Source of the DNA: Candidatus Nomurabacteria bacterium
GTDB lineage: Bacteria > Patescibacteriota > Patescibacteriia > HK-STAS-PATE-3
Length of the DNA stretch: 64,000 bases
Direction of reading: 5' to 3'
NCBI GenBank assembly: GCA_023898465.1
Contig: CP060223.1
Span: forward strand, 640,001-704,000
Positions 15,736-59,876 of the stretch are shown in pieces (the stretch's first letter is position 1; every line of letters starts with the position of its first letter). The translations under genes and the position numbers were made by a program. The notes beneath the pieces were generated by a model that worked only from the letters and a program-made list of their open reading frames with translations, was not told the origin of the DNA and ran no database searches.

Positions 15736-17205
15736 TCAGTCAACCAGCACTTCCCTCCTATCAAAGTGCTGTTCGCAGTAGTGGCAGGCCAGGACTTCCC
15801 GCCCTTCTCCGTTCACATGAAAGTGAGGATAGAGCGCTGCCTCCGCATCACACCTGGTCACGCAAGCCGGGTTGGGACAAGATCCGATACCGGTGATCTC
15901 ACGCACGGTCGCCACCCGCCGCTTCGTTAGCACACCATCACGAATTTCGTTGATGGTCACTTGAGGCACCAAGATGCCGATGGCAGAGAGCTCCCTTGCA
16001 TTCAAGAAAACATCTTCCAGCCGGAGCGTATCCTTCTTGCCGCCCTGACCATTAGACCGCAGTCCCTGATCAAGTCCCACGTAGTGCGCATTTGGATCCA
16101 GACCGAGCACCGACTGAATCCTCCTGCCAAAACCTACAGGCAAATGATCAAGTACCGTCCCGTTACTGATGGGCAAGAAGCGCTGCTGCGCCAACTGCTT
16201 GCGAGCAATCGCTTCATCAGCCGACCCACTTCGCACATCCTCGATCTCCGGCCCAATCACCTCAAGAGGTGTCTCCGCACAGCGACTATGGAGCGCCTCA
16301 TTCAAAAGGGCCATCCTGATCGGCACGCCGTTCGCTGCCTGAGCGTCGATGATGACTCGTGGGTCACCGAGGACAGAAGGATGAATCTCATTGTCACCGA
16401 TCGGCAGGGGGTGCATCACCAAGACCTTAGACCCAAGCATGTCTAGGGCCGCCTGGTCAATCGTGAAACGACCGGCAACCCTGTGGTATTCGTACTCGCT
16501 CGGGAAACGCTCTCGTTGCACCCGAGTCGCATAGACCAAGTGGCACCCTGCCAGCGTCTCCAAATCACTCGCCACGGTGACATTGTACATGCCTCTCGTA
16601 TACCACCACTGCAACTGTGCTTCCGGTGCTGAGACTAGTACAATCTCCACACCCTCTAGCAGGCGCAGTGCGCGAATCAAGGAATGCACCGTGCGAGAAT
16701 ACTTGAAATCACCCACGAAACCAATCTTGAAACCATTCAGTCGACCCAAATGGCGCCGAATGGTGTAGAGATCAAGAAGGGTCTGGCTGGGATGCTCATT
16801 CGCACCGTCGCCAGCATTGAGTACGCAGAGTTGCATACCTCGCCGTGCAGCCATCTCAGCCACCCAACGAGGAGCACCCTCCACTTTTGTCCGCATCACC
16901 AGGGCTGACCCATTGTAGCCGCAGAACATTCGTGCGGTTGCCCCGAGTGTCTCCCCCTTTACCAAGGAAGTTCCCTCGGCCCCTGAGGTCAGCACATGCG
17001 GCAGACCCAGCAGACGCGCTGCCTCCTCGAATGATCCGGCGGTCCTAGTGCTCGGCTCTCCAAAGAGAAGCCGCACAACACCTTGATCGCTAACACTCGG
17101 CAAAGGCTCGCCCTTCTCCCAAGTCATTCGATAGGACTCAGCACTTGCCAAAACCCCATCGATGAAAGGAAGATCGAAATCACCAACCGAGATCACATGC
17201 TTCAC
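15736..17205 (-). CDS. pyrB: Aspartate carbamoyltransferase with the catalytic (PyrB) and regulatory (PyrI, Zn-binding Cx4C...Cx2C) chains fused in one polypeptide.
   Basis: STRT and HPSQ carbamoyltransferase motifs in the N-terminal part, and a C-terminal PyrI zinc domain (CPNPAC...CHYCE). The GTG start at 17205 is preceded by AAGGAGG; the ORF-track start at 17262 lacks an RBS. Confidence 0.8.
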   Translation of the reverse strand: MKHVISVGDFDLPFIDGVLASAESYRMTWEKGEPLPSVSDQGVVRLLFGEPSTRTAGSFEEAARLLGLPHVLTSGAEGTSLVKGETLGATARMFCGYNGSALVMRTKVEGAPRWVAEMAARRGMQLCVLNAGDGANEHPSQTLLDLYTIRRHLGRLNGFKIGFVGDFKYSRTVHSLIRALRLLEGVEIVLVSAPEAQLQWWYTRGMYNVTVASDLETLAGCHLVYATRVQRERFPSEYEYHRVAGRFTIDQAALDMLGSKVLVMHPLPIGDNEIHPSVLGDPRVIIDAQAANGVPIRMALLNEALHSRCAETPLEVIGPEIEDVRSGSADEAIARKQLAQQRFLPISNGTVLDHLPVGFGRRIQSVLGLDPNAHYVGLDQGLRSNGQGGKKDTLRLEDVFLNARELSAIGILVPQVTINEIRDGVLTKRRVATVREITGIGSCPNPACVTRCDAEAALYPHFHVNGEGREVLACHYCEQHFDRREVLVD

Positions 17206-17391
17206 TGCTTGCCTCCTTGTCAACCCAAGCAACAACTTCGATGTTAAACACAGAAGGTTCACTCCTGTGCCCTCTAGAAGAACTGAGTCCCGCGTACCGA
17301 AGCATCAAGAATGCTCCCGGGTACGAAATCTATTTAACCCACATGAACCCATATGCGACTCACTGGGTTATGCGGAGGTATGTCAACGAGC

Positions 17392-21473: not shown

Positions 21474-22163
21474 TTATTTTAGCACTTCTTGTACAGTCTT
21501 CCAGACTTGCTCAGCAATATGTTCGCGATCCTGCATCACGCCATTTTTGGTACACGTTATCACCTTCCAGGAAAAACGTGCTGATAAGCGATGCGCCATT
21601 TCCCAACTCGTCTGCTGATGACGTTTATTCTTTTCCAGACTATCGACAGCCTTTCCGCCCAGGTAATTACGATGACCTTTTGCTCGTACGAGCTTACGTC
21701 CTATGGTATGCGGCACGGAGAGAAAAACAGTCAGATCAGGCTTGAGCACTCCAAGTATGTGATACTCCATTTCTTCTAACCAATGGAGATACTCCTTCTG
21801 CTCCAAAGCTGTTTGAAACTTGGCCGCCTGATGCATCATGCTTGAGGAAGTATAGCGATTACAGACAACTACTTTCCCTTGCGCTAACCATTTATTCAAC
21901 TGATCCTTTGCCTGCCAACGATCAAGTGCATACAAGAGTGAGGCAAGATAAGGATTCACTTTTAGTGTCGGTCCAAATTTGCCCTGAATGAATTGACCGA
22001 CCATGGCCCCAAAGAAACTTTCATCATAACGAGGAAAATCAGCTAAGGCAGTCTGATACCCCTGCTTTTTTAGACGCTGAATAAGGAGACCAGCTTGCGT
22101 TGCCTTGCCAGATCCATCCACCCCGTCGAGTACGATCAGTTTTCCGCTTTGCTTCTTTTTCAC
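21474..22163 (-). CDS. tmk: Thymidylate kinase.
   Basis: GKLIVLDGVDGSGKATQ P-loop and DRY motif. Confidence 0.85.
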   Translation of the reverse strand: MKKKQSGKLIVLDGVDGSGKATQAGLLIQRLKKQGYQTALADFPRYDESFFGAMVGQFIQGKFGPTLKVNPYLASLLYALDRWQAKDQLNKWLAQGKVVVCNRYTSSSMMHQAAKFQTALEQKEYLHWLEEMEYHILGVLKPDLTVFLSVPHTIGRKLVRAKGHRNYLGGKAVDSLEKNKRHQQTSWEMAHRLSARFSWKVITCTKNGVMQDREHIAEQVWKTVQEVLK

Positions 22164-22223
22164 AGGCCAAGTTTAGCATACGCAAGAGCCAAATTCCAAG
22201 TTTTTTATCCAATGATGCATCAC

Positions 22224-22252
22224 TTGAAAAAAGCTGTAAAAACACCTACAAT
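22224..22252 (+). promoter_or_regulatory. Sigma70-like promoter (TTGAAA, 17-nt spacer, TACAAT) in the divergent tmk/thyX intergenic region.
   Basis: Direct hexamer match. The ATG at 22271 follows about 12 nt after the predicted start site. Confidence 0.45.
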
Positions 22253-22270
22253 CCCCATGCTTTTCCGCTA

Positions 22271-23974
22271 ATGATTCCACCCATGCCTACATTCACACCC
22301 GAAGAAATCGAAGTGCTCAAAAAGTATATCACCGACCCCACGGGTGATGTTTTTTGTATTAAAAACATGCCTGGTCTGGTTGGAGCAGCCTATGCCCGCT
22401 ACAGCCGTGCCCGTGGCGGATTTCGAGAAGTACTACTCAAAGAATTTATTAGCGAAGGGGTGGTAGACGCCGAGCATGCGGAAGATCTTATCGAGCGTGT
22501 CTTAATTGCCTATGGCGATGATTCAGTTGGCGAATTAGAAGGCGCTCACATCTCTTTTGAAAATATCTCCATACTTGCCACGAAAGAAATTGAAGAATGT
22601 CGCATTGGTGGCTCCCCCATCGAGCAATCCACTCGTTATGTTTTCTACGACCAAAAAGATGCGCAGGGAAAATATAAATACATTGTCCCGCCTGAACTAG
22701 AAGGAAGCGATTTAGCAAATGAATATACCGAGGCCATGGACTTCCTCTTTGACACCTACTGCCGCCTCATCGAACCCATGAAGGAATTTTATAAGAAGCG
22801 ATTGCCCCTGAAGCAAGCTGAATATGATGTGCTAGGAAATGGCAATAAGCAGCACTATGAAGAGCTGGAAAATGAAAAAGACCAAAAAGCCTTTAAGACA
22901 ACTTATAACATGGATATTCGCACAAAGGCCTGCGACACTTTGCGCTATATCCTCCCACTAGCAACGACCACCAACGTCGGTATTTTTGGCAATGGCCGAT
23001 TCCATCAAAGCATGATCTCTGCTCTACTCTCCAGTCATTTTCGAGAAACCCAAAGGCTGGGCGATGCGGCTTTGCGAGAGCTGAGTAAAATAATTCCGGT
23101 CTATGTGCGGCGCGCCAAGCGAGATGAATATCGCACCACGATTGAACATGACATGGAACGCTTAGTAAGCGACTTACTCGCCAATGTGGAGGCAGAAACC
23201 CCGACTGAAGAAATACACCTTATGGACGAAGGCGAGGCGTATATTGCGAAACATTTGAACGGCCAAAGCGACCCTGCGGCGCTTCGTCAAGCTATAGCCC
23301 GATATCGTGATACTTCCCTCCTGGCCCACATCCTCTATGCCTACGCCCAGCATCCTTTGTCACAGCTAATGGATTTTGTTGAGCAACTTTCAGAAGAAAA
23401 ACGTAAAGAGATTATTGATACCTACATTGGTCAGCGCCGCACCCGTCGTGACCGCCCTTATCGTGCTTTTGAAAGCGGCTACCCCTACACCTTTGACCTG
23501 GTTACCGACTTTGGCAGCTACAAAGATCTCATGCGCCATCGCATGACCACGCAGCTACGTCAGCGCTTCTCGCCTGAGCTGGGCTTTGCCATGCCGCAAG
23601 ATATTATTGAGGCAGGCTTCAGCGAAGAGATTCAGGCTTGTCATGAGCGCTCACAAGAACTTTATCGCAAGCTAGCCAAGCAACTTCCTCAGATTGCTCA
23701 ATATGCTGCCCTGCACGGCTCTAAAGTGCGCTGGGTGATTGGGATGAACGAACGAGAGGCCTATCACCTACTTGAACTCCGCACCACTCCACAGGGCCAT
23801 CCTGCCTATCGTAAAGTCGGCCAGGAGATGCACAAACGTATTCAGGAGCGTTCAGCTTGGCGCGCCGCCCGTATGAGCTTTGTTGACCACAACAGCTACA
23901 CCTCTGCTCGCGGCGACTCAGAGGCAAAGCAGCGAGTCAAAGAACGCAAATACGAAGAAACGCACGGCGCCTAA
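22271..23974 (+). CDS. thyX: ThyX-like flavin-dependent thymidylate synthase, unusually long (about 567 aa, possibly a duplicated domain).
   Basis: RHR...S-type motif (MRHRMTTQLRQRFS) in the C-terminal half and a ThyX-like N-terminal half. The ORF-track start at 22100 would overlap the tmk start, so the in-frame ATG at 22271 is taken instead. Confidence 0.5.
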   Translation: MIPPMPTFTPEEIEVLKKYITDPTGDVFCIKNMPGLVGAAYARYSRARGGFREVLLKEFISEGVVDAEHAEDLIERVLIAYGDDSVGELEGAHISFENISILATKEIEECRIGGSPIEQSTRYVFYDQKDAQGKYKYIVPPELEGSDLANEYTEAMDFLFDTYCRLIEPMKEFYKKRLPLKQAEYDVLGNGNKQHYEELENEKDQKAFKTTYNMDIRTKACDTLRYILPLATTTNVGIFGNGRFHQSMISALLSSHFRETQRLGDAALRELSKIIPVYVRRAKRDEYRTTIEHDMERLVSDLLANVEAETPTEEIHLMDEGEAYIAKHLNGQSDPAALRQAIARYRDTSLLAHILYAYAQHPLSQLMDFVEQLSEEKRKEIIDTYIGQRRTRRDRPYRAFESGYPYTFDLVTDFGSYKDLMRHRMTTQLRQRFSPELGFAMPQDIIEAGFSEEIQACHERSQELYRKLAKQLPQIAQYAALHGSKVRWVIGMNEREAYHLLELRTTPQGHPAYRKVGQEMHKRIQERSAWRAARMSFVDHNSYTSARGDSEAKQRVKERKYEETHGA

Positions 23975-30547: not shown

Positions 30548-34893
<4,346 letters not shown>

Positions 34894-34894
34894 A

Positions 34895-35887
34895 TTAGAA
34901 TTGCGACAAGAAACGAAGATCGCCCTGATATGACATACGCACATCAGGCACTTGATAGTAATACATCATGAGGCGATCAATCCCCATGCCAAAAGCAAAG
35001 CCAGAGTACTCCCGAGGATCAACGCGCATATTCCGCAGCACCTCTGGATGAATCATGCCGCAGCCCAGCATCTCCATCCAACCTTTGCCGCCGTTCATCA
35101 GGATTTCCGCGCCTGGCTCCACAAATGGGAAAAAGCTTGGCTGCGCTCGGATTTCTACGTGTTCGCCAAAAAGTGTTTTGAAAAAAGTTTCCAAAGTACC
35201 GAGAAGGTCGCCAAAGGTCAGCCCTTTGGCAATCGCCATACCTTCGCAGTAATGATAGTTCGCCTCATGCGACGCATCAGTTGCCTCGTGACGGAACACA
35301 CGCCCAGGTGAAATGAAACGGATCGGCGGCTGGCGCTCCTCCATCACCCGCACCTGCATCGGAGAAATGTGCGTGCGCAGTAAAGGCTGGTTGGGTCCGC
35401 TCTTCAGCGCACCGTCAATGTAAAAAGTATCCCACTCATCCCGGGCTGGATGATCCTCAGGGATGCGGAGGAAGTCGAAGTTGTACTTGGCCAGCTCAAT
35501 CTCCGGGCCATGCAGCACCTCATAACCCATGCCCATGAAGACCTCCTGAATCCGCCGCTGCATATGACGGAGAGGATGAATTGAACCAAGAGGCAGTTCC
35601 GGCCCCATTAGGGTGAGATCAGCTGCTGCTTTCACGTTCCCCTGCTGCAAAAGCTGCTGCTGTTTCTGCAGCGCTTGTTCCAGCTCTTGCTTCACGCTAT
35701 TCCAAAGTTTGCCCAGCTGCGCGCGGTCGCTCTGCGGCTGGCTGGCAATCGCGGTTGATGCCTGAGCTAAAGCGCCTTTGCGGCCAAGCCAGGTATTGCG
35801 CCACTGCTCCAGTGACTTCGCATCACTCACCTGCTGCAGAGCAGCCATGGCATCACTACGTAGCTTATTGAGTTCGGATTCCATCAT
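34895..35887 (-). CDS. pheS: Phenylalanyl-tRNA synthetase alpha subunit. The start is uncertain (35923 in the ORF track, more probably 35887 or 35884).
   Basis: Class II motifs (FRHEATDASH, GMGIDRL). Confidence 0.9.
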   Translation of the reverse strand: MMESELNKLRSDAMAALQQVSDAKSLEQWRNTWLGRKGALAQASTAIASQPQSDRAQLGKLWNSVKQELEQALQKQQQLLQQGNVKAAADLTLMGPELPLGSIHPLRHMQRRIQEVFMGMGYEVLHGPEIELAKYNFDFLRIPEDHPARDEWDTFYIDGALKSGPNQPLLRTHISPMQVRVMEERQPPIRFISPGRVFRHEATDASHEANYHYCEGMAIAKGLTFGDLLGTLETFFKTLFGEHVEIRAQPSFFPFVEPGAEILMNGGKGWMEMLGCGMIHPEVLRNMRVDPREYSGFAFGMGIDRLMMYYYQVPDVRMSYQGDLRFLSQF

Positions 35888-36266
35888 GCGGCTTTTGTTC
35901 ACGGGCCAGAGCAAAGAATTCAATCAAAGAAAGGAGGATGAGATAGGCAGCCAGGTTCCACCAACGCAGGAATTCAGACACCTGCATAATGAGCGCGCCG
36001 CTCACCAGGAGACTGAAGAGCGTGCCCTGGCGAAAAGAAATCGCCACCTGCCGGTAGGCCACTGGTTCGCGCACAAAGCGCATCCGCAGACCAAAACCCA
36101 GCAAGGAGAAGCTGCCAATCAAGGCAAAAAACAAGGTTAAAAAAAACGCGGCATGCCCGATGAAGCCCGACACCTCCGGATCAATCGAGAAAAGGACCAG
36201 CGCCCAGAGCGCCCAACTCAGCACCGTGGCCACAGTCATAAGGAGCAGGTAACGTCGAATGCTCAC
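35865..36266 (-). CDS. Small four-TM membrane protein of unknown function (GTG start, no SD).
   Basis: Hydrophobic profile only. It overlaps the pheS 5' end by about 20 nt. Confidence 0.35.
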   Translation of the reverse strand: MSIRRYLLLMTVATVLSWALWALVLFSIDPEVSGFIGHAAFFLTLFFALIGSFSLLGFGLRMRFVREPVAYRQVAISFRQGTLFSLLVSGALIMQVSEFLRWWNLAAYLILLSLIEFFALAREQKPHDGIRTQ

Positions 36267-36491
36267 AAGGCAAAAATTCGGGAGTAATTAGCTAAAACAG
36301 CAGCCTGATTGTACCAGAAATCAGGTGCTGGGGCAAGATAGGATATTTAATTACTTTTTGTTTGGATAACGGGAAAAAAGGAAAATGAATGAATGTTCGT
36401 CGATCAAAATATCTTAGCACTCTTTCTTCAATCCATTCATTTATACCTAATATTTATTTTAGACACATATTATTGACCATACTTAACTCTT

Positions 36492-38819
36492 TCAGTCTTT
36501 CGTCGCATCATTGATAATTTGATAGTGATTTGGTGCGATTTTTTCCATCATCTCAAATAATTCATTCACAATCTTTTTTGTCTCTGGGACGAGCGCTGGA
36601 TTAAAACCGGATCCAGTAATATGTGATTGATCATTTGTAAATTTGTATATGGCGTCTAACTTTTGTTCATCATACCCATTTTGTTTTAACTCCTCTATCT
36701 TTTTATATGATTTTTTTCCATTTGGAACACTGAACATTAAAAACGTATCCCAAACCTTCCTTGCTATATTAGGAATAGGATATGCCTTGGCGATAGAATC
36801 ATCTTGTTCATCGCGAAGATATTTAAGTAATTTAAAGAGATAGTGGTATTCACTTTCATATTCACAAAGCTCTTTATCCATTCTATCAATGTAGGCACAA
36901 CGAATGTTCGAGGGAAAATAATTTTTTATCATAAAGTACCCGGTATTATCTCTCCCGGCACCCCTCCGCCAATTGATCAAAAGTTTCAAGAAATCAAAAC
37001 TATGAGTAAAAATAAACACTTGCCCGCCGTCTTTTACTGCACCCTTCAAAAAACTAAAGGCTTGATAAAGAGAATTTGAATCGAGGCTAGATACAGGATC
37101 GTCAATGAGGATGATTCCATTTTGAAGATCAAAACTCTGATCTTCAAGATGCACCACAAAATATATAAAGGCAATAGCGGTCTTTTCACCTTCGCTTAAA
37201 TATTTTGCAGCAGAGTCATCGCGCATGATATTGTACCCCGAAACAACCTCTTTTTCATCACCATTCTCGCTAATAACCGTTTCGATGCGCGGAACAAATT
37301 TTAGCTCTCTGTGCCCCAAATAAGTTGCTATTTTTTCATTGATGACTTCACAGGCCTTATGTTTCGATGAGATTTTCGCTGTATTTTCTTCAATTCTTTT
37401 ATTTATCTCCTCAATTTCTTTTGTTAATGTGTCTATGTTTTTTGTTAGATTAGAAATATCTGATTCTATTTTTTTTATATCGTCAAAAATTGTACTCAGA
37501 TAGTGGAATTTTATTTTTTCCGCAGCCCTCTGTTTAACGGTATCAAAATCCGCAGTTCGTTTTTTGTGTTCATCAATAATGGCATTTACGCTATCAACAA
37601 CTTTATATAGACCGATACTGCTCAATTTTTTATCATGCTCTACCCTTTCGGTCGTCTTACTTTTCTTACTTTTAATTTTATCCGCAAGATTTGTAATATC
37701 GTTGACAAATTGTTGTTTAGCTAGTTCAAAATTAACTTTTTCTGTCTCTAGGTTTGTTTGTAGGTCTTTATAGAATCTCGTTTTCTCGGGAATTGTTATA
37801 TTTTGAATAACGGAGTAAAGCTTCCTTAATTTTTCAACAAGACTATCCAGGTCTTCTTTTAATTTTTTGTCTGCATTATTAAAATAAAGTGCCAATTGCT
37901 CTACTCTATCATTTGGAATATTTTGTAAACAGTATTCGCAAACATCTGAAGAATGTCTTTTGTGTAATTTTACCCCCTCTTCTACCCATTCTGAAATATC
38001 ATTATTTTCTGCAAGTCGATTAATAATCTCGGACTCAACTTTTTTGTTTAATACGTTTTCTGCCTCGGTATTAATGGAATTTACAATTTCAGAAATTTCG
38101 TAATTGTTTTGATCTATTTCGACTTTCGGAATAAATATTCTATCCAAAAATGGTAGAGATTCCTGCTTTAAAGAGATTAATATATTATTGAGCTCTACTT
38201 CTTCTAGCTCCACCTTCCTATTAATTTTAGAAAAATCACTTTCTGCCTGCGGCCTACGATAATCTCTTAATGCATTTCCTCCGATCGCAGCTCCTATGGT
38301 TTTTGCAATTTCGGTGAATTGACCATCGCGACTTGCTTTAAGCCGCTTATGGTCTTTTTTATAATCTGCCAATCTTGCAATTTTTCCTCTTTGCTTCGGA
38401 TCAGATGAATCGCCGTTGAGTAAAGTTCTATCTTTTTTAATTTGAACAGCGAGATCTTTATTTTCTTCACCGAGTAAAATTGAAATTGAATTTGCACGGC
38501 CTTCTATAAGCTCAATATTTCTTTCTATATAGTCTCTGTTGAAAACTCTGACTTTTGGAGGGAATGTGTCGTTTTGATCGTACCTATTTCCATTCTCGTC
38601 TTCAATTTCATACTCCAGATTTTCAATACTCACCCCGCTTAAAGCATCAAATAAACGGGAGAGTGTTGTTTTGCCGCTTCCATTCCAACCATACACTAAA
38701 TTAAGTTGCTTGAAATTTGGCAAGGTTGATCTAGATCGTATTCCTGAACCCCAGACATAATTAGAAAAAACAAGTCCGAGATTTTTTATTTTATTGATTC
38801 TTTGGATAGCATTACCCAT
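36492..38819 (-). CDS. PrrC/RloC-like (AAA_13) Rad50-type ATPase with a coiled-coil CxxC zinc hook; candidate anticodon nuclease or abortive-infection defence protein.
   Basis: N-terminus NLGLVFSNYVWGS...LNLVYGWNGSGKTTLSRLF (Walker A). A 500-aa coiled-coil insert carries CEYC. The C-terminal head has the signature LSEGEK, Walker B IILIDDP, D-loop SSLD, H-loop FTHS and a roughly 150-aa C-terminal domain. The gene sits in a 25-30% GC island. Confidence 0.65.
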   Translation of the reverse strand: MGNAIQRINKIKNLGLVFSNYVWGSGIRSRSTLPNFKQLNLVYGWNGSGKTTLSRLFDALSGVSIENLEYEIEDENGNRYDQNDTFPPKVRVFNRDYIERNIELIEGRANSISILLGEENKDLAVQIKKDRTLLNGDSSDPKQRGKIARLADYKKDHKRLKASRDGQFTEIAKTIGAAIGGNALRDYRRPQAESDFSKINRKVELEEVELNNILISLKQESLPFLDRIFIPKVEIDQNNYEISEIVNSINTEAENVLNKKVESEIINRLAENNDISEWVEEGVKLHKRHSSDVCEYCLQNIPNDRVEQLALYFNNADKKLKEDLDSLVEKLRKLYSVIQNITIPEKTRFYKDLQTNLETEKVNFELAKQQFVNDITNLADKIKSKKSKTTERVEHDKKLSSIGLYKVVDSVNAIIDEHKKRTADFDTVKQRAAEKIKFHYLSTIFDDIKKIESDISNLTKNIDTLTKEIEEINKRIEENTAKISSKHKACEVINEKIATYLGHRELKFVPRIETVISENGDEKEVVSGYNIMRDDSAAKYLSEGEKTAIAFIYFVVHLEDQSFDLQNGIILIDDPVSSLDSNSLYQAFSFLKGAVKDGGQVFIFTHSFDFLKLLINWRRGAGRDNTGYFMIKNYFPSNIRCAYIDRMDKELCEYESEYHYLFKLLKYLRDEQDDSIAKAYPIPNIARKVWDTFLMFSVPNGKKSYKKIEELKQNGYDEQKLDAIYKFTNDQSHITGSGFNPALVPETKKIVNELFEMMEKIAPNHYQIINDATKD

Positions 38820-38919
38820 GACGGTAAAAAATTATATTATTGGCAAGTTCACCCCCACCATAAATCACATAGTAACCGATTACACCTTACACCCCTCCTT
38901 AACCTCTTACACCATTCAT

Positions 38920-38937
38920 CTCAAGAAAATATTAAGA
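38920..38937 (+). repeat. Copy 1 of the 18-bp tandem half-site motif (cTCAAGA-AAAT-ATTAAGA).
   Basis: Located 101-118 nt upstream of the RloC-like start. Confidence 0.6.
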
Positions 38938-39021
38938 CCACCCTCCCCTGCCAATAGCAAAAGCGGGTAGCCAACGGCACCCGCTCATTACTCCCTCCAT
39001 AGGGTATTTCACCAGAAACAG

Positions 39022-39039
39022 ATTAAGAAAATATTAAGA
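39022..39039 (+). repeat. Copy 2 of the motif (ATTAAGA-AAAT-ATTAAGA, perfect tandem half-sites).
   Basis: Located 3 nt beyond the stop of the 39042-39590 gene and 102 bp from copy 1. Confidence 0.6.
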
Positions 39040-39041
39040 GG

Positions 39042-39590
39042 CTAAATTGCCTGATAGGTATTTACAATCTGAGTTGCCTCTTGAAGCATATTATCAGCTC
39101 CCTGGCTCCTCGCCGGGATCGTCCATAGCAACATAGCATCACCACTTACCATGTAGTAATGATCAAAACCACCGTCAAAGCTATAATACGCAGTGCTTCC
39201 GTTTGAGAGTGTTATCGCCTGCCAAGTATCCGCTATTTCAGTGTTCGAGCTGATAGTCAGAGATAGTGCTGGCACTTCGCTTGCCTGCTCTGTAGATGTA
39301 GGGGTCGGTACGTTCTTTTCAGTATTCACTGACCAACCCTGAGGGTAACGCACTGAGAAATGATACTCGGGATTTTCTACTACCTTCCAAGCAGAAATAT
39401 CTACATTGCCTGACGACGGTGGTAATACTGACTGAGTGAAATTTTGTTGCACCGCCATGGATGACTCTAGTTCGTTAACCTGAGCACTTAACTCTTGCGC
39501 ATCATTTCGAGCAAGGCTATACATCCACGCTAAACTCACCGTGATAACAACAAGGACAATAAAGGCTATATTCTGGAATTTCTTGGACAT
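39042..39590 (-). CDS. Membrane-anchored secreted protein of unknown function.
   Basis: N-terminal TM anchor and an extracytoplasmic domain. The gene is flanked by inverted copies of the 18-bp motif. Confidence 0.5.
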   Translation of the reverse strand: MSKKFQNIAFIVLVVITVSLAWMYSLARNDAQELSAQVNELESSMAVQQNFTQSVLPPSSGNVDISAWKVVENPEYHFSVRYPQGWSVNTEKNVPTPTSTEQASEVPALSLTISSNTEIADTWQAITLSNGSTAYYSFDGGFDHYYMVSGDAMLLWTIPARSQGADNMLQEATQIVNTYQAI

Positions 39591-39656
39591 AGTTGTCTCC
39601 TGCTAATTAATAACAGGGCTATCTTAGCCCAGTAATATCTAATAAGCAAGTCCTAT

Positions 39657-39674
39657 TCTTAATATTTTCTTTAA
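39657..39674 (-). repeat. Copy 3 of the motif in inverted orientation (TTAAAGA-AAAT-ATTAAGA on the minus strand).
   Basis: Lies in the divergent intergenic region between 39590 (-) and 39755 (+). Confidence 0.6.
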
Positions 39675-39754
39675 CTACCATATGTAAATTGTCCCTGGGT
39701 GATAACCAGCCTGATTATCACATCTGTGAAGTTCTTTGAAGAAAAGGAAGCAAA

Positions 39755-40108
39755 ATGAGGTATCTTCTCTTCCTGATTGTCGCACTGGTGGCGCTTTCAG
39801 TTGCTAGCCCCGGAGTGAGCCTTGCGACGGACACAACGGTGGAGTACTCCTTCTACGGTCCGTCCGGAGACTACAAGATCGAACTCTTCGAGGTGGGGGC
39901 ACCCTATCCATCTCGACAAGACTACGTCTACGGCTATAGTGGCACTTTCACGTATCGCCGTACTTGGTCATCGATCGTCGCCTACCGATCCTACTTCATC
40001 CGCATCACTGACCTTAACTCGGGAGTCGCAAAGCAGACTGGATCCGTCTACGTTACCTACAATGGTGGGTACTATGCGTGGTCGACCTGCTACTGGAGCT
40101 CAATGTAA
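39755..40108 (+). CDS. Small secreted Tyr/Ser/Thr-rich protein with a signal peptide (117 aa).
   Basis: Sec signal peptide MRYLLFLIVALVALSVASPGVSLA. A strong terminator follows at 40135-40172. Confidence 0.5.
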   Translation: MRYLLFLIVALVALSVASPGVSLATDTTVEYSFYGPSGDYKIELFEVGAPYPSRQDYVYGYSGTFTYRRTWSSIVAYRSYFIRITDLNSGVAKQTGSVYVTYNGGYYAWSTCYWSSM

Positions 40109-40134
40109 AGACTTCGACTTCCTGAAGGGTTCTC

Positions 40135-40172
40135 AACTGCGTCATTTCCTCTAGGGAATGGCGCAGTTTTTT
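40135..40172 (+). terminator. Rho-independent terminator.
   Basis: AACTGCG...CGCAGTT with a nested CATTTCC/GGGAATG pairing, followed by T6. Confidence 0.55.
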
Positions 40173-40255
40173 ACTAGCAGCTCAAGTAGTGTTTTTTAAA
40201 TAGCAAAGCTAATTATTTCATATTTGCATACCACTGCATTACCCACAAATAAACG

Positions 40256-40284
40256 TTGACAAAAACGCCTCATAGGTTTATATT
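40256..40284 (+). promoter_or_regulatory. Near-consensus promoter (TTGACA, 17-nt spacer, TATATT).
   Basis: Direct match. It drives the 40343 ORF. Confidence 0.5.
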
Positions 40285-40342
40285 GCGGTGTTCTCTAGTG
40301 GCTCTTTTCACACGTGCAAATCAGACAGAGACGGAGGCCTCT

Positions 40343-40618
40343 ATGTTGAGATCAGCTGAGGAAGTCAGCGCCGGAATCCTCGAACGAATACCGGAGTCTG
40401 CTCCGGAACGAGAAATCCTGCGACAACGCTTCGATGAAATCATGCGCGAGATCGGACCCGATCAGAACAGCCTACCCTTCACCTCACCTGAGATGCTGCA
40501 GGGTTACGACGGCTTGAGAATTCAAGGCTTCTGCAACGCTTGCACAGAAACGATCGGCGATCCCAGCGGAAGCGAATGGAAACTCGCGGTAGCAAGCTAC
40601 CTCAGTTCTGGATCCTGA
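40343..40618 (+). CDS. Acidic 92-aa hypothetical protein.
   Basis: ATG with GGAGG at 5 nt. The promoter lies upstream. The TTG start at 40256 given by the ORF track coincides with the -35 element and is rejected. Confidence 0.35.
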   Translation: MLRSAEEVSAGILERIPESAPEREILRQRFDEIMREIGPDQNSLPFTSPEMLQGYDGLRIQGFCNACTETIGDPSGSEWKLAVASYLSSGS

Positions 40619-40645
40619 CCCCCAAACCCTTTCCTCGAGGTCGAC

Positions 40646-40840
40646 ATGACAACAAGGACCAGAGGACGGAGTCAGGTCAAAAGGCTCCTCACCCTCATAC
40701 AAGGTTCCTCATGCAGGGACCTAACCCCAGAAGATGATGGCTTCAATGCCCAAGTCCGGAGCCAGATGATGGAGCTCTGGGCAAAGGACCCCAAGCGTGC
40801 CAGACGACACATCATTCGGAGCAGGCCTGTCCGCTCTTGA
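40646..40840 (+). CDS. Basic 64-aa hypothetical protein, weak call.
   Basis: It follows the acidic ORF in the same transcript, bounded by the terminator at 40854-40890. No SD, and competing overlapping frames exist. Confidence 0.2.
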   Translation: MTTRTRGRSQVKRLLTLIQGSSCRDLTPEDDGFNAQVRSQMMELWAKDPKRARRHIIRSRPVRS

Positions 40841-40853
40841 ACCCATCCCTAAA

Positions 40854-40890
40854 GACTGTTGGATACGCTCCAGCAGTCTTTTTCTTTATT
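40854..40890. terminator. Terminator shared by the small-ORF unit and the convergent mgtE-like gene.
   Basis: GACTGTTGG-atacgct-CCAGCAGTC followed by TTTTTCTTTATT. Confidence 0.45.
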
Positions 40891-40906
40891 CAACTTTCTA
40901 AAAATC

Positions 40907-41461
40907 CTACAAAATAATTAGACTCGCCACTACTCCGTAAATGACCACGCTAAGCATGTCCTGCAACACCGTAGCGATCGGTCCGGTGCTCGCTGCTGGA
41001 TCTCGATGAGCTGATTGGAAGAGGTAGGCAATGATGAGTGCTACTACTGGGGCTGTGGTAATAGCAACACATGAAGCAATCGCCACGCTCAATGACAATT
41101 GCGCATCTCCCAACCAAAACCAAGTGATGAGTCCGGAGATAAGACCAAACACGATGCCAATAATTACACCGAGAGAAAACTCTTTGCGGAGATAAACCTT
41201 GAACTTGGCTTTCCCAGTTTTTAAATCACGGGAATAAATAGCCTCGGTTTGCGTCCCCACTGCATCAGAAATATACACAATGAAGGGCATGAAAAAGGCC
41301 ACCTGCACGCTATGGGCCAGCACTTCTTCAAAACGCGAAGTAACAAAAGAAATACCAATGCCTAACATGAGACCAAAAATAAGAGCTGGGGCTCGCAGGT
41401 TTAATAAAGTACCAATGCTCTCATGACCATCATCTGCGTATCGTATTTTTGGCGTTTGCAT
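40907..41461 (-). CDS. MgtE-family divalent-cation transporter, TM domain only (no N-terminal MgtE_N/CBS domains).
   Basis: FFMPFIVYISDAVGTQTEAIYSRDL and five TM helices typical of the MgtE C-terminal domain, at 184 aa. Confidence 0.65.
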   Translation of the reverse strand: MQTPKIRYADDGHESIGTLLNLRAPALIFGLMLGIGISFVTSRFEEVLAHSVQVAFFMPFIVYISDAVGTQTEAIYSRDLKTGKAKFKVYLRKEFSLGVIIGIVFGLISGLITWFWLGDAQLSLSVAIASCVAITTAPVVALIIAYLFQSAHRDPAASTGPIATVLQDMLSVVIYGVVASLIIL

Positions 41462-50221: not shown

Positions 50222-51628
50222 TTAGGAGTCAGATTTGGGTAAATACTTCTCAATATATTCTTCTTTCACACGCTTCAGTTCAGACTTCGGCAAGATGGAG
50301 AAGAGTTCCCAACCGAGATTCAAGGTCGTGAGAATATCGCGATCCTCATACTCACCTTGGTTGATGTAGCGTGACTCAAACTGCGTGGCAAATTCCACGT
50401 ACTTCTTATCAACGTCGGACAGAGCAGCTTCACCGAGGATAGCGGCTAATTCCTTTGCCTCAGTGCCACGAGCGTAGGCAGCATAGAGCTGGTTAAAGAC
50501 TCCGGAGTGATCCTCACGAGTCTTCTCTTCTCCGATACCCTTCGGCATCAGACGAGAGAGACATGGCAGCACATCAACTGGAGGACGAATACCGCGCTTG
50601 TGCAAGCCGCGGCTTAACATGATTTGTCCTTCGGTAATGTAGCCGGTCAAGTCAGGAATTGGATGTGTCTTATCATCTTCCGGCATGGTAAGAATCGGGA
50701 TCTGGGTAATTGAACCCTTCTTACCCTTGATCATACCAGCGCGCTCGTACAGGGTAGCTAAGTCAGTGTAGAGGTAACCTGGGTAGCCACGGCGACCTGG
50801 GACTTCTTTACGAGCTGCCGCAACTTCACGCAAGGCTTCACAGTAGTTAGTCATGTCGGTCAGGATAACCAAGACGTGCATGTCCTTTTCAAAAGCCAGA
50901 TACTCGGCAGTGGTCAGAGCCAAGCGAGGTAGAGTGATACGTTCAACCACCGGGTCATTTGCCTGGTTCAAGAAGAGTACCGCGCGGCTGATAGCACCGG
51001 TCTTGCGGAATTCATTTACGAAGTATTCTGCTTCTTCAAAGGTGATACCCATAGCGCCAAAGACTACAGCGAATTGGGAATCCTCTGCTTCCACTTTACC
51101 CTGCGGGGAAACGCGAACCACTTTTGCCTGACGAGCGATTTGGGCGGCCATGGCATTGTGTGGCAAACCAGCGCCGGAGAAAATCGGTAGCTTTTGTCCA
51201 CGCACTAAAGTATTCAATCCATCAATCGTGGAAATACCGGTTTGGATAAAGTCATTTGGGAAGTTACGGGAGTATGGGTTAATCGGATTACCGTTCACGT
51301 TCAAACGTGCTTCGGCAATGATTTCGGCTCCACCGTCTTTTGGCTTACCTGAGCCGTCAAAGACGCGACCAAGCATGTCGGTGGAAACTGGCAATTCCAT
51401 AACGCGGCCGAGGAAGCGGGCGGAAGCATCCTGCACGCTAATACCGCGAGTGTCTTCAAACATCTGTACCACTGCCCGATCATTGTCGATTTCGAGCACG
51501 CGGCCGCGGCGAATCTTGCCATCAGGCAATTTCACATCGACCAGCTCTTCGTATTTGACGCCTTCCACTCCCTCAACAATGAGGAGAGGACCAGCGACTT
51601 CACGTAGTGTCTTGTATTCTCGTTCCAT
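50222..51628 (-). CDS. ntpB: A/V-type ATPase subunit B.
   Basis: Non-catalytic nucleotide-binding subunit motifs. Confidence 0.9.
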
Positions 51629-59560: not shown

Positions 59561-59841
59561 GCGCGCGCTGACTTGTTAACGATCACTCCGGAGTGCGGAG
59601 TCTAACTCATGCAGCATATCGCGGAGACTCGAGAGTACGCCACCAGGATCATGACTTTGGTGCGCCGATTTTGACTGGCGCCGTTTTCCTGGATGAGAAC
59701 CTTCTGCCTCGTGCAATGTAGTGGAATCAGTCGAGAGAGAAATCGGTCGACTTTCCTCCTTTCCTTGCCTTTAAAGAACGAAATGTTCCGACACATGTAT
59801 CGGAACCATCACTAGTATAGCGTATTTTGACCTTCTCGTAA

Positions 59842-59876
59842 AGACAAAATGTATGAACTTGTCATACATTTTGTCT
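59842..59876. repeat. Perfect 15-bp inverted repeat (AGACAAAATGTATGA-acttg-TCATACATTTTGTCT).
   Basis: Located 25 nt downstream of the stop of the 59901-61598 gene. No flanking U tract. Confidence 0.6.

Follow-up and report, generated by a model that had tools for sequence, protein, structure and literature searches.

What is the function, if any, of a 15-bp sequence that occurs in three exact copies clustered within 750 bp of a bacterial genome? The question was raised by a 64,000-nt stretch of DNA from "Candidatus Nomurabacteria bacterium" (contig CP060223.1, positions 640,001 to 704,000), which is referred to here as the window. The source is a metagenome-assembled genome (MAG) of this uncultured organism and consists of a single contig of 1,082,586 bp. 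Two of the copies, M1 and M2, lie between an RloC-like gene and a gene for a 182-aa protein. The third copy, M3, lies on the other side of the 182-aa gene, where a divergent gene for a 117-aa orphan protein begins. An initial annotation of the window had described the copies as 18-bp tandem half-site motifs and had offered two ideas for them, a regulatory site or the termini of a small inserted element. We find that the triple repeat is real, statistically solid, and local. It is most likely an uncharacterized cis-regulatory operator or promoter element, with a recombination joint as a minority possibility, and the regulatory reading is the better of the two ideas. To our knowledge, almost nothing is known about transcription control in the Candidate Phyla Radiation (CPR), or Patescibacteria. 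A comparable CPR operator or motif was not found in the searchable literature.

A 15-bp repeat is present in three exact copies

An exact scan of the window found the 18-bp sequence ATTAAGANNNNATTAAGA, a perfect match to ATTAAGA-N4-ATTAAGA, only once, at 39022-39039 on the + strand. The two other sites in the initial annotation, at 38920-38937 on the + strand (CTCAAGAAAATATTAAGA) and at 39657-39674 on the - strand (TTAAAGAAAATATTAAGA), have two mismatches each. Both mismatches fall in the 5' half-site, of which 5 of the 7 positions are kept. What the three sites share exactly is a 15-mer (Table 1). The coordinates and orientations that had been reported hold, as does the distance of 102 bp (about 10 helical turns) between the first and second copies, which have the same orientation. 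Each copy had also been described as a direct repeat of a 7-mer with 11-bp spacing. This is true of copy 2 and not of copies 1 and 3, and the direct repeat conserved across the copies is AAGA-N7-AAGA only. The N4 spacer, AAAT, is invariant in all three copies, and half-site 1 is variable. The original observation was therefore partly confirmed, since the repeat is real and non-random but is a 15-mer rather than three 18-bp tandem half-site motifs.

A k-mer census was used to compare the repeat to the rest of the window. The 15-mer is the sole k-mer of at least 14 nt with three copies in the window and, hairpins and palindromes aside, the sole repeated 15-mer with copies less than 1 kb apart. 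When up to two mismatches were allowed, four matches were found, compared to 0.19 expected from shuffles. The fourth match, at 50248, is inside a V-ATPase gene and has two mismatches. Loci in IMG/VR that match the 15-mer carry exactly one copy each in the more than 80 loci listed, out of at least 120 matching. Because of the census, the shuffle expectation, and these singleton loci, we conclude that the three-copy cluster is not due to chance.

All three copies are in non-coding DNA, which makes up 8% of the window. In the flanks of the copies, 11 of 100 columns are identical, compared to 6.3 +/- 2.5 expected, and so there is no real flank homology. M1 and M2 form a direct pair that encloses 87 bp. 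The 182-aa gene is flanked by M2 and M3 as inverted repeats, exact over 15 nt and extendable to 43 nt at 72%. As the initial annotation had stated, no further copy is present in the other 63 kb of the window (the genome is 1.08 Mb). A candidate fourth copy downstream of the RloC-like gene (36442-36461, 36445) was rejected. It has four mismatches to the 15-mer, and the window contains 38 such matches, many of which fall in the AT-rich RloC-like gene. The heptamer ATTAAGA occurs 13 times in the window, compared to 9.6 expected, and 4 of the 13 occurrences are inside the three copies.

The 15-mer was also compared to known elements. In the searchable literature, the string was present only in incidental primer or gene sequences. 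A search of positions 36000-41000 against Rfam found no RNA family, and the window has no tRNA gene that might serve as an attachment site. Other site types (Xer/dif, integron attC, IHF, CodY, and C-box) were compared by eye to their consensus sequences, and none fits on this inspection. A metagenome scan for two copies 75-100 nt apart returned only unrelated 11-bp tandem satellites. In the satellite (AAGAAAATATT)n of contigs Ga0105053_10079655 and Ga0209425_10010953, the window 15-mer corresponds to 1.4 units. These contigs contain long head-to-tail arrays in very AT-rich, unrelated DNA, whereas the window has three isolated copies and no array. The arrays are in the loci L013 (7720-7970) and L014 (1-1080).

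Two copies overlap predicted promoters

Promoters were predicted as matches to the sigma-70 consensus with a threshold of 9/12. One scan covered positions 36000-41000 and another, under the same rule, the whole window, and the results agree. The whole window contains 79 sigma-70-like matches, and 21 of these are in the 4.66 kb of intergenic gaps. The intergenic density is 4.5 per kb compared to 1.2 per kb overall, a 3.7-fold difference. One correctly oriented TTGACx-17-TAxxxT match is found upstream of most operons in the window. Canonical promoters thus seem to be in use in this organism, which makes the scan informative here.

Each of the two gaps that matter here contains a single sigma-70-like match. 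In the gap upstream of the RloC-like gene (38820-39041), the match is TTGGCA-17-TATTTT, its -10 hexamer is inside M1, and transcription is predicted to start near 38919. In the divergent gap (39591-39754), the match is TTTACA-16-AATATT, its -10 hexamer is inside M3, and the predicted start is near 39654. These candidate promoters of the RloC-like gene and the 182-aa gene use opposite strands of the motif and different registers. Hexamers resembling a -35 element also stand upstream of AATATT in M1 and M2, at the same 16-nt spacing as in M3. The base rate of such 4/6 hexamers is 0.041-0.047 per position, and with the M3 geometry as the hypothesis this amounts to about 0.002 for M1 and M2 jointly. 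A repeated identical site that overlaps -10/-35 elements, as is seen here for the predicted -10 hexamers in M1 and M3, would be typical of an operator in a sigma-70 core promoter.

At its center, the motif has AATATT on one strand and TAATAT on the opposite one, and the -11A and -7T positions are reciprocally paired. This pairing is the geometry of bacterial bidirectional promoters (PMC10268837, summarizing Warman et al. 2021). With -10 elements on both strands and -11A/-7T paired, the 15-mer has the appearance of a putative bidirectional sigma-70 promoter.

The positions of the copies relative to the genes are best followed along the - strand. The order is M3, a leader with AGGAG, the 182-aa gene and its stop codon, 2 nt, M2, 38 nt, a strong terminator, 23 nt, M1, a 103-nt leader, and the ATG of the RloC-like gene. 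M1 is 104-118 nt upstream of this ATG and 23 nt past the terminator of the 182-aa gene. M2 follows the stop codon of the 182-aa gene (39042) at a distance of 2 nt and precedes the terminator. M3 is central in the 164-bp divergent gap (39591-39754; 182-aa gene on the - strand, 117-aa gene on the + strand), with the ATG of the 182-aa gene 66 nt away on one side and the ATG of the 117-aa gene 84-98 nt downstream on the other. The 75-nt RNA that contains the terminator (39024-38950) has a folding energy of -29.5 kcal/mol (z = -3.65).

Table 1. Features of the repeat-bearing region, with positions in the window
Feature	Positions	Strand	Description
M1	38923-38937	+	exact 15-mer AAGAAAATATTAAGA
M2	39025-39039	+	exact 15-mer AAGAAAATATTAAGA; full ATTAAGA-N4-ATTAAGA at 39022-39039
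M3	39657-39671	-	exact 15-mer AAGAAAATATTAAGA; inverted relative to M1 and M2
Candidate RloC-like promoter	38926-38954	-	TTGGCA (38954-38949), 17 nt, TATTTT (38931-38926) inside M1
Candidate 182-aa promoter	39661-39688	-	TTTACA (39688-39683), 16 nt, AATATT (39666-39661) inside M3
-35-like hexamer CTTACA	38906-38911	+	16 nt upstream of AATATT in M1; 4/6 match to TTGACA
-35-like hexamer TTCACC	39008-39013	+	16 nt upstream of AATATT in M2; 4/6 match
Intrinsic terminator of 182-aa gene	38961-38986	-	G+C-rich hairpin followed by TTTTGCTATT; between M2 and M1
RloC-like / AAA_13 ATPase gene	36492-38819	-	PF13166 (7e-118); PADLOC PDC-S06 (6e-224)
182-aa gene	39042-39590	-	N-terminal hydrophobic anchor; no Pfam family
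117-aa orphan gene	39755-40108	+	signal-peptide-like N-terminus; divergent from 182-aa gene

The repeat lies in a strain-variable region

A relative whose PheS is 94% identical and whose DNA is 88% identical is collinear with the window from 34600 to 36361 only. The collinear stretch includes a conserved gene for a 133-aa membrane protein and the promoter of that gene. Past 36361, the relative has a different gene, and therefore the region that carries the copies is strain-variable. No relative was found in the GTDB species set with PheS and the RloC-like protein as queries. The segments that the copies separate differ in G+C content (34%, 54%, 45%, and 54%). No second copy of the 87-bp segment, of the leader in front of the RloC-like gene, or of the divergent gap is present in the window, and a repeated element of the MITE or REP type was rejected on this ground.

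Independent assemblies from other samples contain the same sequence, and the region is therefore not an assembly artifact. The three independent assemblies that cover M3 agree there, and the two that span all three copies agree throughout. Two contigs from other samples keep the arrangement of the window wherever they overlap with it, and one of them is chimeric further on. The 1328-nt Logan contig SRR14234116_295391, from a second sample, ends at 38920 and at approximately 40247. The end at 38920 is the outer edge of the 18-nt copy 1 and is 3 nt outside M1. The other end is 9 nt upstream of a TTGACA-17-TATATT promoter at 40256. These ends may be branch points in the assembly graph, caused by strain variation, or may reflect low coverage.

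The RloC-like gene in this region looks horizontally acquired. It has 34% GC, compared to approximately 50% in the surrounding genome. The protein is identical to USN53192.1, and its homologues carry the source labels "wobble nucleotide-excising tRNase" or "RloC". Residues 495-760 match PrrC (1e-10), and a CxxC (CEYC) is visible in the translation. The combination of an AAA_13-type ATPase with a C-terminal PrrC-like nuclease region would be that of an RloC anticodon nuclease. In the loci of the closest homologues, at 73% and 64% identity, the gene comes last in a restriction-modification operon (HpaII/Vsr and AlwI) and either overlaps with the gene before it or abuts it directly. The gene in the window is solitary and seems to have been torn out of a restriction-modification operon. 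Because it is the last, overlapping gene of an operon in its closest relatives, it must have gained a new promoter here. The idea that the motif travels with the gene was rejected, as the loci of the closest homologues do not have it and homology ends at the reading frame.

The leader of the RloC-like gene has some features of its own. The gene has no Shine-Dalgarno sequence. At 38875-38915, the leader contains three GGTGTAA sequences (TTACACC on the + strand) in approximately 40 nt, in addition to several mini-ORFs of 2-9 codons. Further upstream, an 18-codon open reading frame (ORF; MSGCRWLPAFAIGRGGWS) at 38988-38932 on the - strand has a good GGAGG ribosome-binding site, starts in the terminator hairpin of the 182-aa gene, and has its TAA inside M1. 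Ahead of the RloC-like gene, this ORF could encode a leader peptide or take part in attenuation, or it may be there by chance.

Operators on core promoters are a tentative explanation

At a little short of an even chance, we tentatively favor the explanation that one sequence-specific DNA-binding protein, encoded elsewhere in the genome, uses the 15-mers as operators and that these sites are part of the core promoters of a small strain-specific gene cluster. We infer that the two candidate promoters are real and that the protein binds, represses, and co-regulates. M1 would cover the -10 element of the candidate RloC-like promoter. M3 would cover the -10 element of the candidate 182-aa promoter, and it is central in the divergent region that is shared with the 117-aa gene. 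A protein bound at these sites would occlude RNA polymerase and, in doing so, could co-regulate the cluster. M2, 102 bp from M1, may be an auxiliary operator that acts by cooperative binding or by looping over the RloC-like promoter. An operator placed on a promoter is favored over a copied promoter because the motif is used in opposite orientations by the two promoters. The protein-binding idea of the initial annotation fits best, with all copies in non-coding DNA and two of them on the -10 elements of the sole promoter-like matches. Its assignment to a particular regulator family is unsupported (see below).

Several points weigh against operators. M2 has no promoter at the 9/12 threshold, and the promoter calls are consensus matches and predictions only. 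Binding sites are rarely identical over 15/15 positions with edges this sharp, and such identity looks more like the result of copying than of selection. The copies have no counterpart in the other 63 kb. There is also no evolutionary support, since neither the locus of a distant 182-aa homologue nor the closest RloC-like loci have the motif. A regulator is not recognizable in the window either. No transcription factor, response regulator, or histidine kinase was recognized in the 64 kb, and neither Response_reg, Trans_reg_C, nor other transcription-factor domains were found in the window ORFs of at least 100 aa or in the small ORFs tested. Two orphan proteins of 64 aa and 91 aa, encoded near the 117-aa gene, had no Pfam match even at E = 1. 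Their single-sequence AlphaFold models are helical and of low confidence (pLDDT 70 and 66, respectively). Foldseek, run against the PDB with the 64-aa model only, gave no match below E = 1.9 and none to a DNA-binding fold, and the models say little about either protein as the regulator.

Alternative explanations

The 15-mers could instead be scars of recombination or insertion. They might be the common core of a site-specific recombination system (att-type core, shufflon site, or inverton), or inserted DNA might have left them as its termini or as duplications of its target. In either case they would mark the joints between segments that were acquired separately, namely the genes for the RloC-like, 182-aa, and 117-aa proteins and the 87-bp segment with the terminator. 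A crossover core would be expected to show such exact identity, sharp boundaries, and lack of flank homology. G+C content differs among the segments that the copies separate, the region to the right of 36361 is not collinear with the relative of 88% DNA identity, and the inverted pair M2/M3 (43 nt at 72%) encloses one gene. The end of the second-sample contig 3 nt outside M1 would be expected of an assembly-graph branch at a junction, but a low-coverage end at this place could also be due to chance, at roughly 2%. The common cores of site-specific recombination include the 15-bp core of lambda att and the inverted repeats of invertons and shufflons. Like these, the copies are short, exact, sharply bounded, both direct and inverted, and at the border of a variable region, so that an identical core is found at the segment borders. 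Unlike them, they come with no recombinase in the 64 kb, a direct pair that flanks only 87 bp, and no alternative arrangement in the assemblies, which agree with one another wherever they cover the region. The window has no recognizable gene for an integrase, an invertase, or a transposase, and the segments between the copies are unique in it. The homology of the RloC-like gene stops at the reading frame, and other RloC-like loci do not have the motif. We regard scars as an unlikely origin.

The small inserted element of the initial annotation is one form of this explanation. What stands of it is the inverted pair, the strain-variable region, and the contig end at 38920. An insertion element or MITE would have terminal inverted repeats, as are found here, but the window shows no target-site duplication outside the inverted pair (the flanks are ...AACAG(ATT) and (TTA)ACTACC...), no transposase or recombinase, and no second copy. 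In addition, the 182-aa gene belongs to a small CPR family, of which one member is beside a housekeeping gene. A different form is a cassette-shuffling or inversion system, in which the 15-mers are crossover sites and a recombinase encoded elsewhere inserts, deletes, or flips promoter-bearing cassettes, including the defense gene, next to the pheST operon. If this were true, the second-sample contig break 3 nt outside M1 would be its first trace; we give such a system a slim chance.

The repeat could also be the core of a promoter that was copied without any dedicated protein, a "mobile promoter". Such a core would be an AT-rich, near-symmetric -10 module, perhaps bidirectional, that serves acquired promoterless genes. 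The -10 hexamers of the sole promoter-like matches are inside M1 and M3, -35-like hexamers stand 16 nt upstream of all three copies, and the -11A/-7T positions are reciprocally paired. The RloC-like gene, which is operon-terminal in its closest relatives, needed a new promoter. However, 15 identical bases are more than an ordinary promoter requires, and the positions beside its hexamers can normally vary. The two best promoters are on opposite strands and in different registers, and M2 faces a terminator or, in the antisense direction, the 182-aa gene. We also know of no mechanism that copies just 15 bp, which counts against this explanation. Taken together, a copied core seems quite unlikely.

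A special case of the favored operators would be a site for a response regulator of the OmpR/PhoB family, as the initial annotation had proposed, with two winged-helix monomers on (A/T)T(T/A)AAGA half-sites 11 bp apart. In copy 2, the 7-mer is repeated perfectly in direct orientation, with a period of 11 bp and an A/T-rich spacer of 4 bp, and copies 1 and 3 keep 5/7 positions of the upstream half-site. The assignment is otherwise unsupported. The tandem 7-mer is perfect only once, and an invariant spacer with a variable half-site 1 is the opposite of what selection on half-sites would produce. ATTAAGA is not enriched elsewhere (13 vs. 9.6 expected), M1 and M3 are on predicted -10 elements rather than in the -35 region or upstream of it, and neither a response regulator nor a histidine kinase is encoded in the window. 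We consider this family improbable. The repeat may, finally, be a neutral leftover of a local duplication or of a microhomology-mediated rearrangement. The motif is not conserved outside this strain, it has no other copies in the window, and the region is young and variable. Against this, three exact copies in scarce non-coding DNA, two of them on -10 elements, would require several coincidences, and a neutral origin is likewise improbable.

Comparison to known regulatory systems

By analogy, the arrangement may be most like repression by multiple operators with an auxiliary operator, or like response-regulator boxes, and we assign it to no family. Repression by several operators, including an auxiliary one, occurs at lac (O1/O3) and gal (OE/OI). 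As in these systems, the window has several sites, with one on a predicted core promoter and another at a distance of approximately 100 bp (102 bp), which is close to helical phase. In contrast to lac and gal, the sites in the window are asymmetric rather than palindromic, are 15/15 identical, and have no adjacent repressor gene, and binding is only putative here.

The PhoB pho box and the ArcA sites consist of short half-site direct repeats with 11-bp periodicity. The window resembles them in its half-site direct repeat, its 11-bp periodicity, and its A/T-rich spacer, and the resemblance is perfect in copy 2. It differs in that AAGA-N7-AAGA alone is kept across the copies, in that the sites are on the -10 element and do not replace or precede the -35 element, and in that there is no response regulator nearby.

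The known bidirectional promoters (PMC10268837) share with the repeat the -11A/-7T pairing. The divergent starts predicted here are 18 bp apart, and M3 is situated between divergent genes, which is also similar. The known examples are not exact repeated 15-mers, however, and the starts in the window are predicted only.

If the operators are confirmed, a defined operator of 15 bp would be known for the promoters of two envelope proteins and of a defense gene of the anticodon-nuclease type that was acquired horizontally. The search for a CPR regulator and its regulon would then have a concrete starting point. It would also show host control of a potentially toxic defense gene that had been torn from a restriction-modification operon. 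If the copies are recombination joints, they would document how variable islands are assembled in reduced genomes. The scope is local in either case, with three sites in one strain.

Neighboring genes

The 182-aa protein is identical to USN53193.1. Its family is small, with 8 representatives at E < 1e-10, and consists of CPR proteins. One homologue locus could be retrieved (35% identity). It adjoins YceG, and the motif is absent there. Conservation of the motif with the 182-aa family is therefore unsupported, since this sole retrievable locus does not have it. A search of viral contigs did not yield a relative of the 182-aa protein.

On the other side of the 117-aa gene, positions 40256-40881 on the + strand appear to form a single, compact unit of transcription. 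Its promoter at 40256, TTGACA-17-TATATT, is close to the consensus, and the unit contains the 91-aa ORF, an uncalled basic ORF of 64 aa (40646-40840), and a strong terminator (40851-40881).

The remainder of the window encodes housekeeping functions, including RF, PrmC, DnaE, ThrRS, GatB, L11/L1/NusG, GyrB, PheST, an AddA-like helicase-nuclease, and a V-type ATPase. The ORF for the 133-aa membrane protein (35865-36266, - strand) overlaps with a publicly called 84-aa ORF (35886-36140, + strand). The 133-aa ORF is conserved in the close relative L015, as is its promoter, TTGCCC-17-(TG)TACAAT, at 36336-36308. The 133-aa ORF on the - strand is more likely to be the real gene than the 84-aa ORF.

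A second short repeat, GTATAGCGTATTT(T/C), also occurs three times in the window. Two copies, at 32806-32822 and 32876-32891, are 70 nt apart in the 3' part of pheT. The copy at 59814-59830 is intergenic and precedes a perfect hairpin (59842-59876). Three proteins encoded in the window have an unusual architecture: an apparent PyrB-PyrI fusion of 508 aa (15736-17262, - strand), a 624-aa ThyX-containing protein with two Thy1 stretches (22100-23974, + strand), and a 184-aa protein that consists of an MgtE membrane domain alone (40907-41461, - strand).

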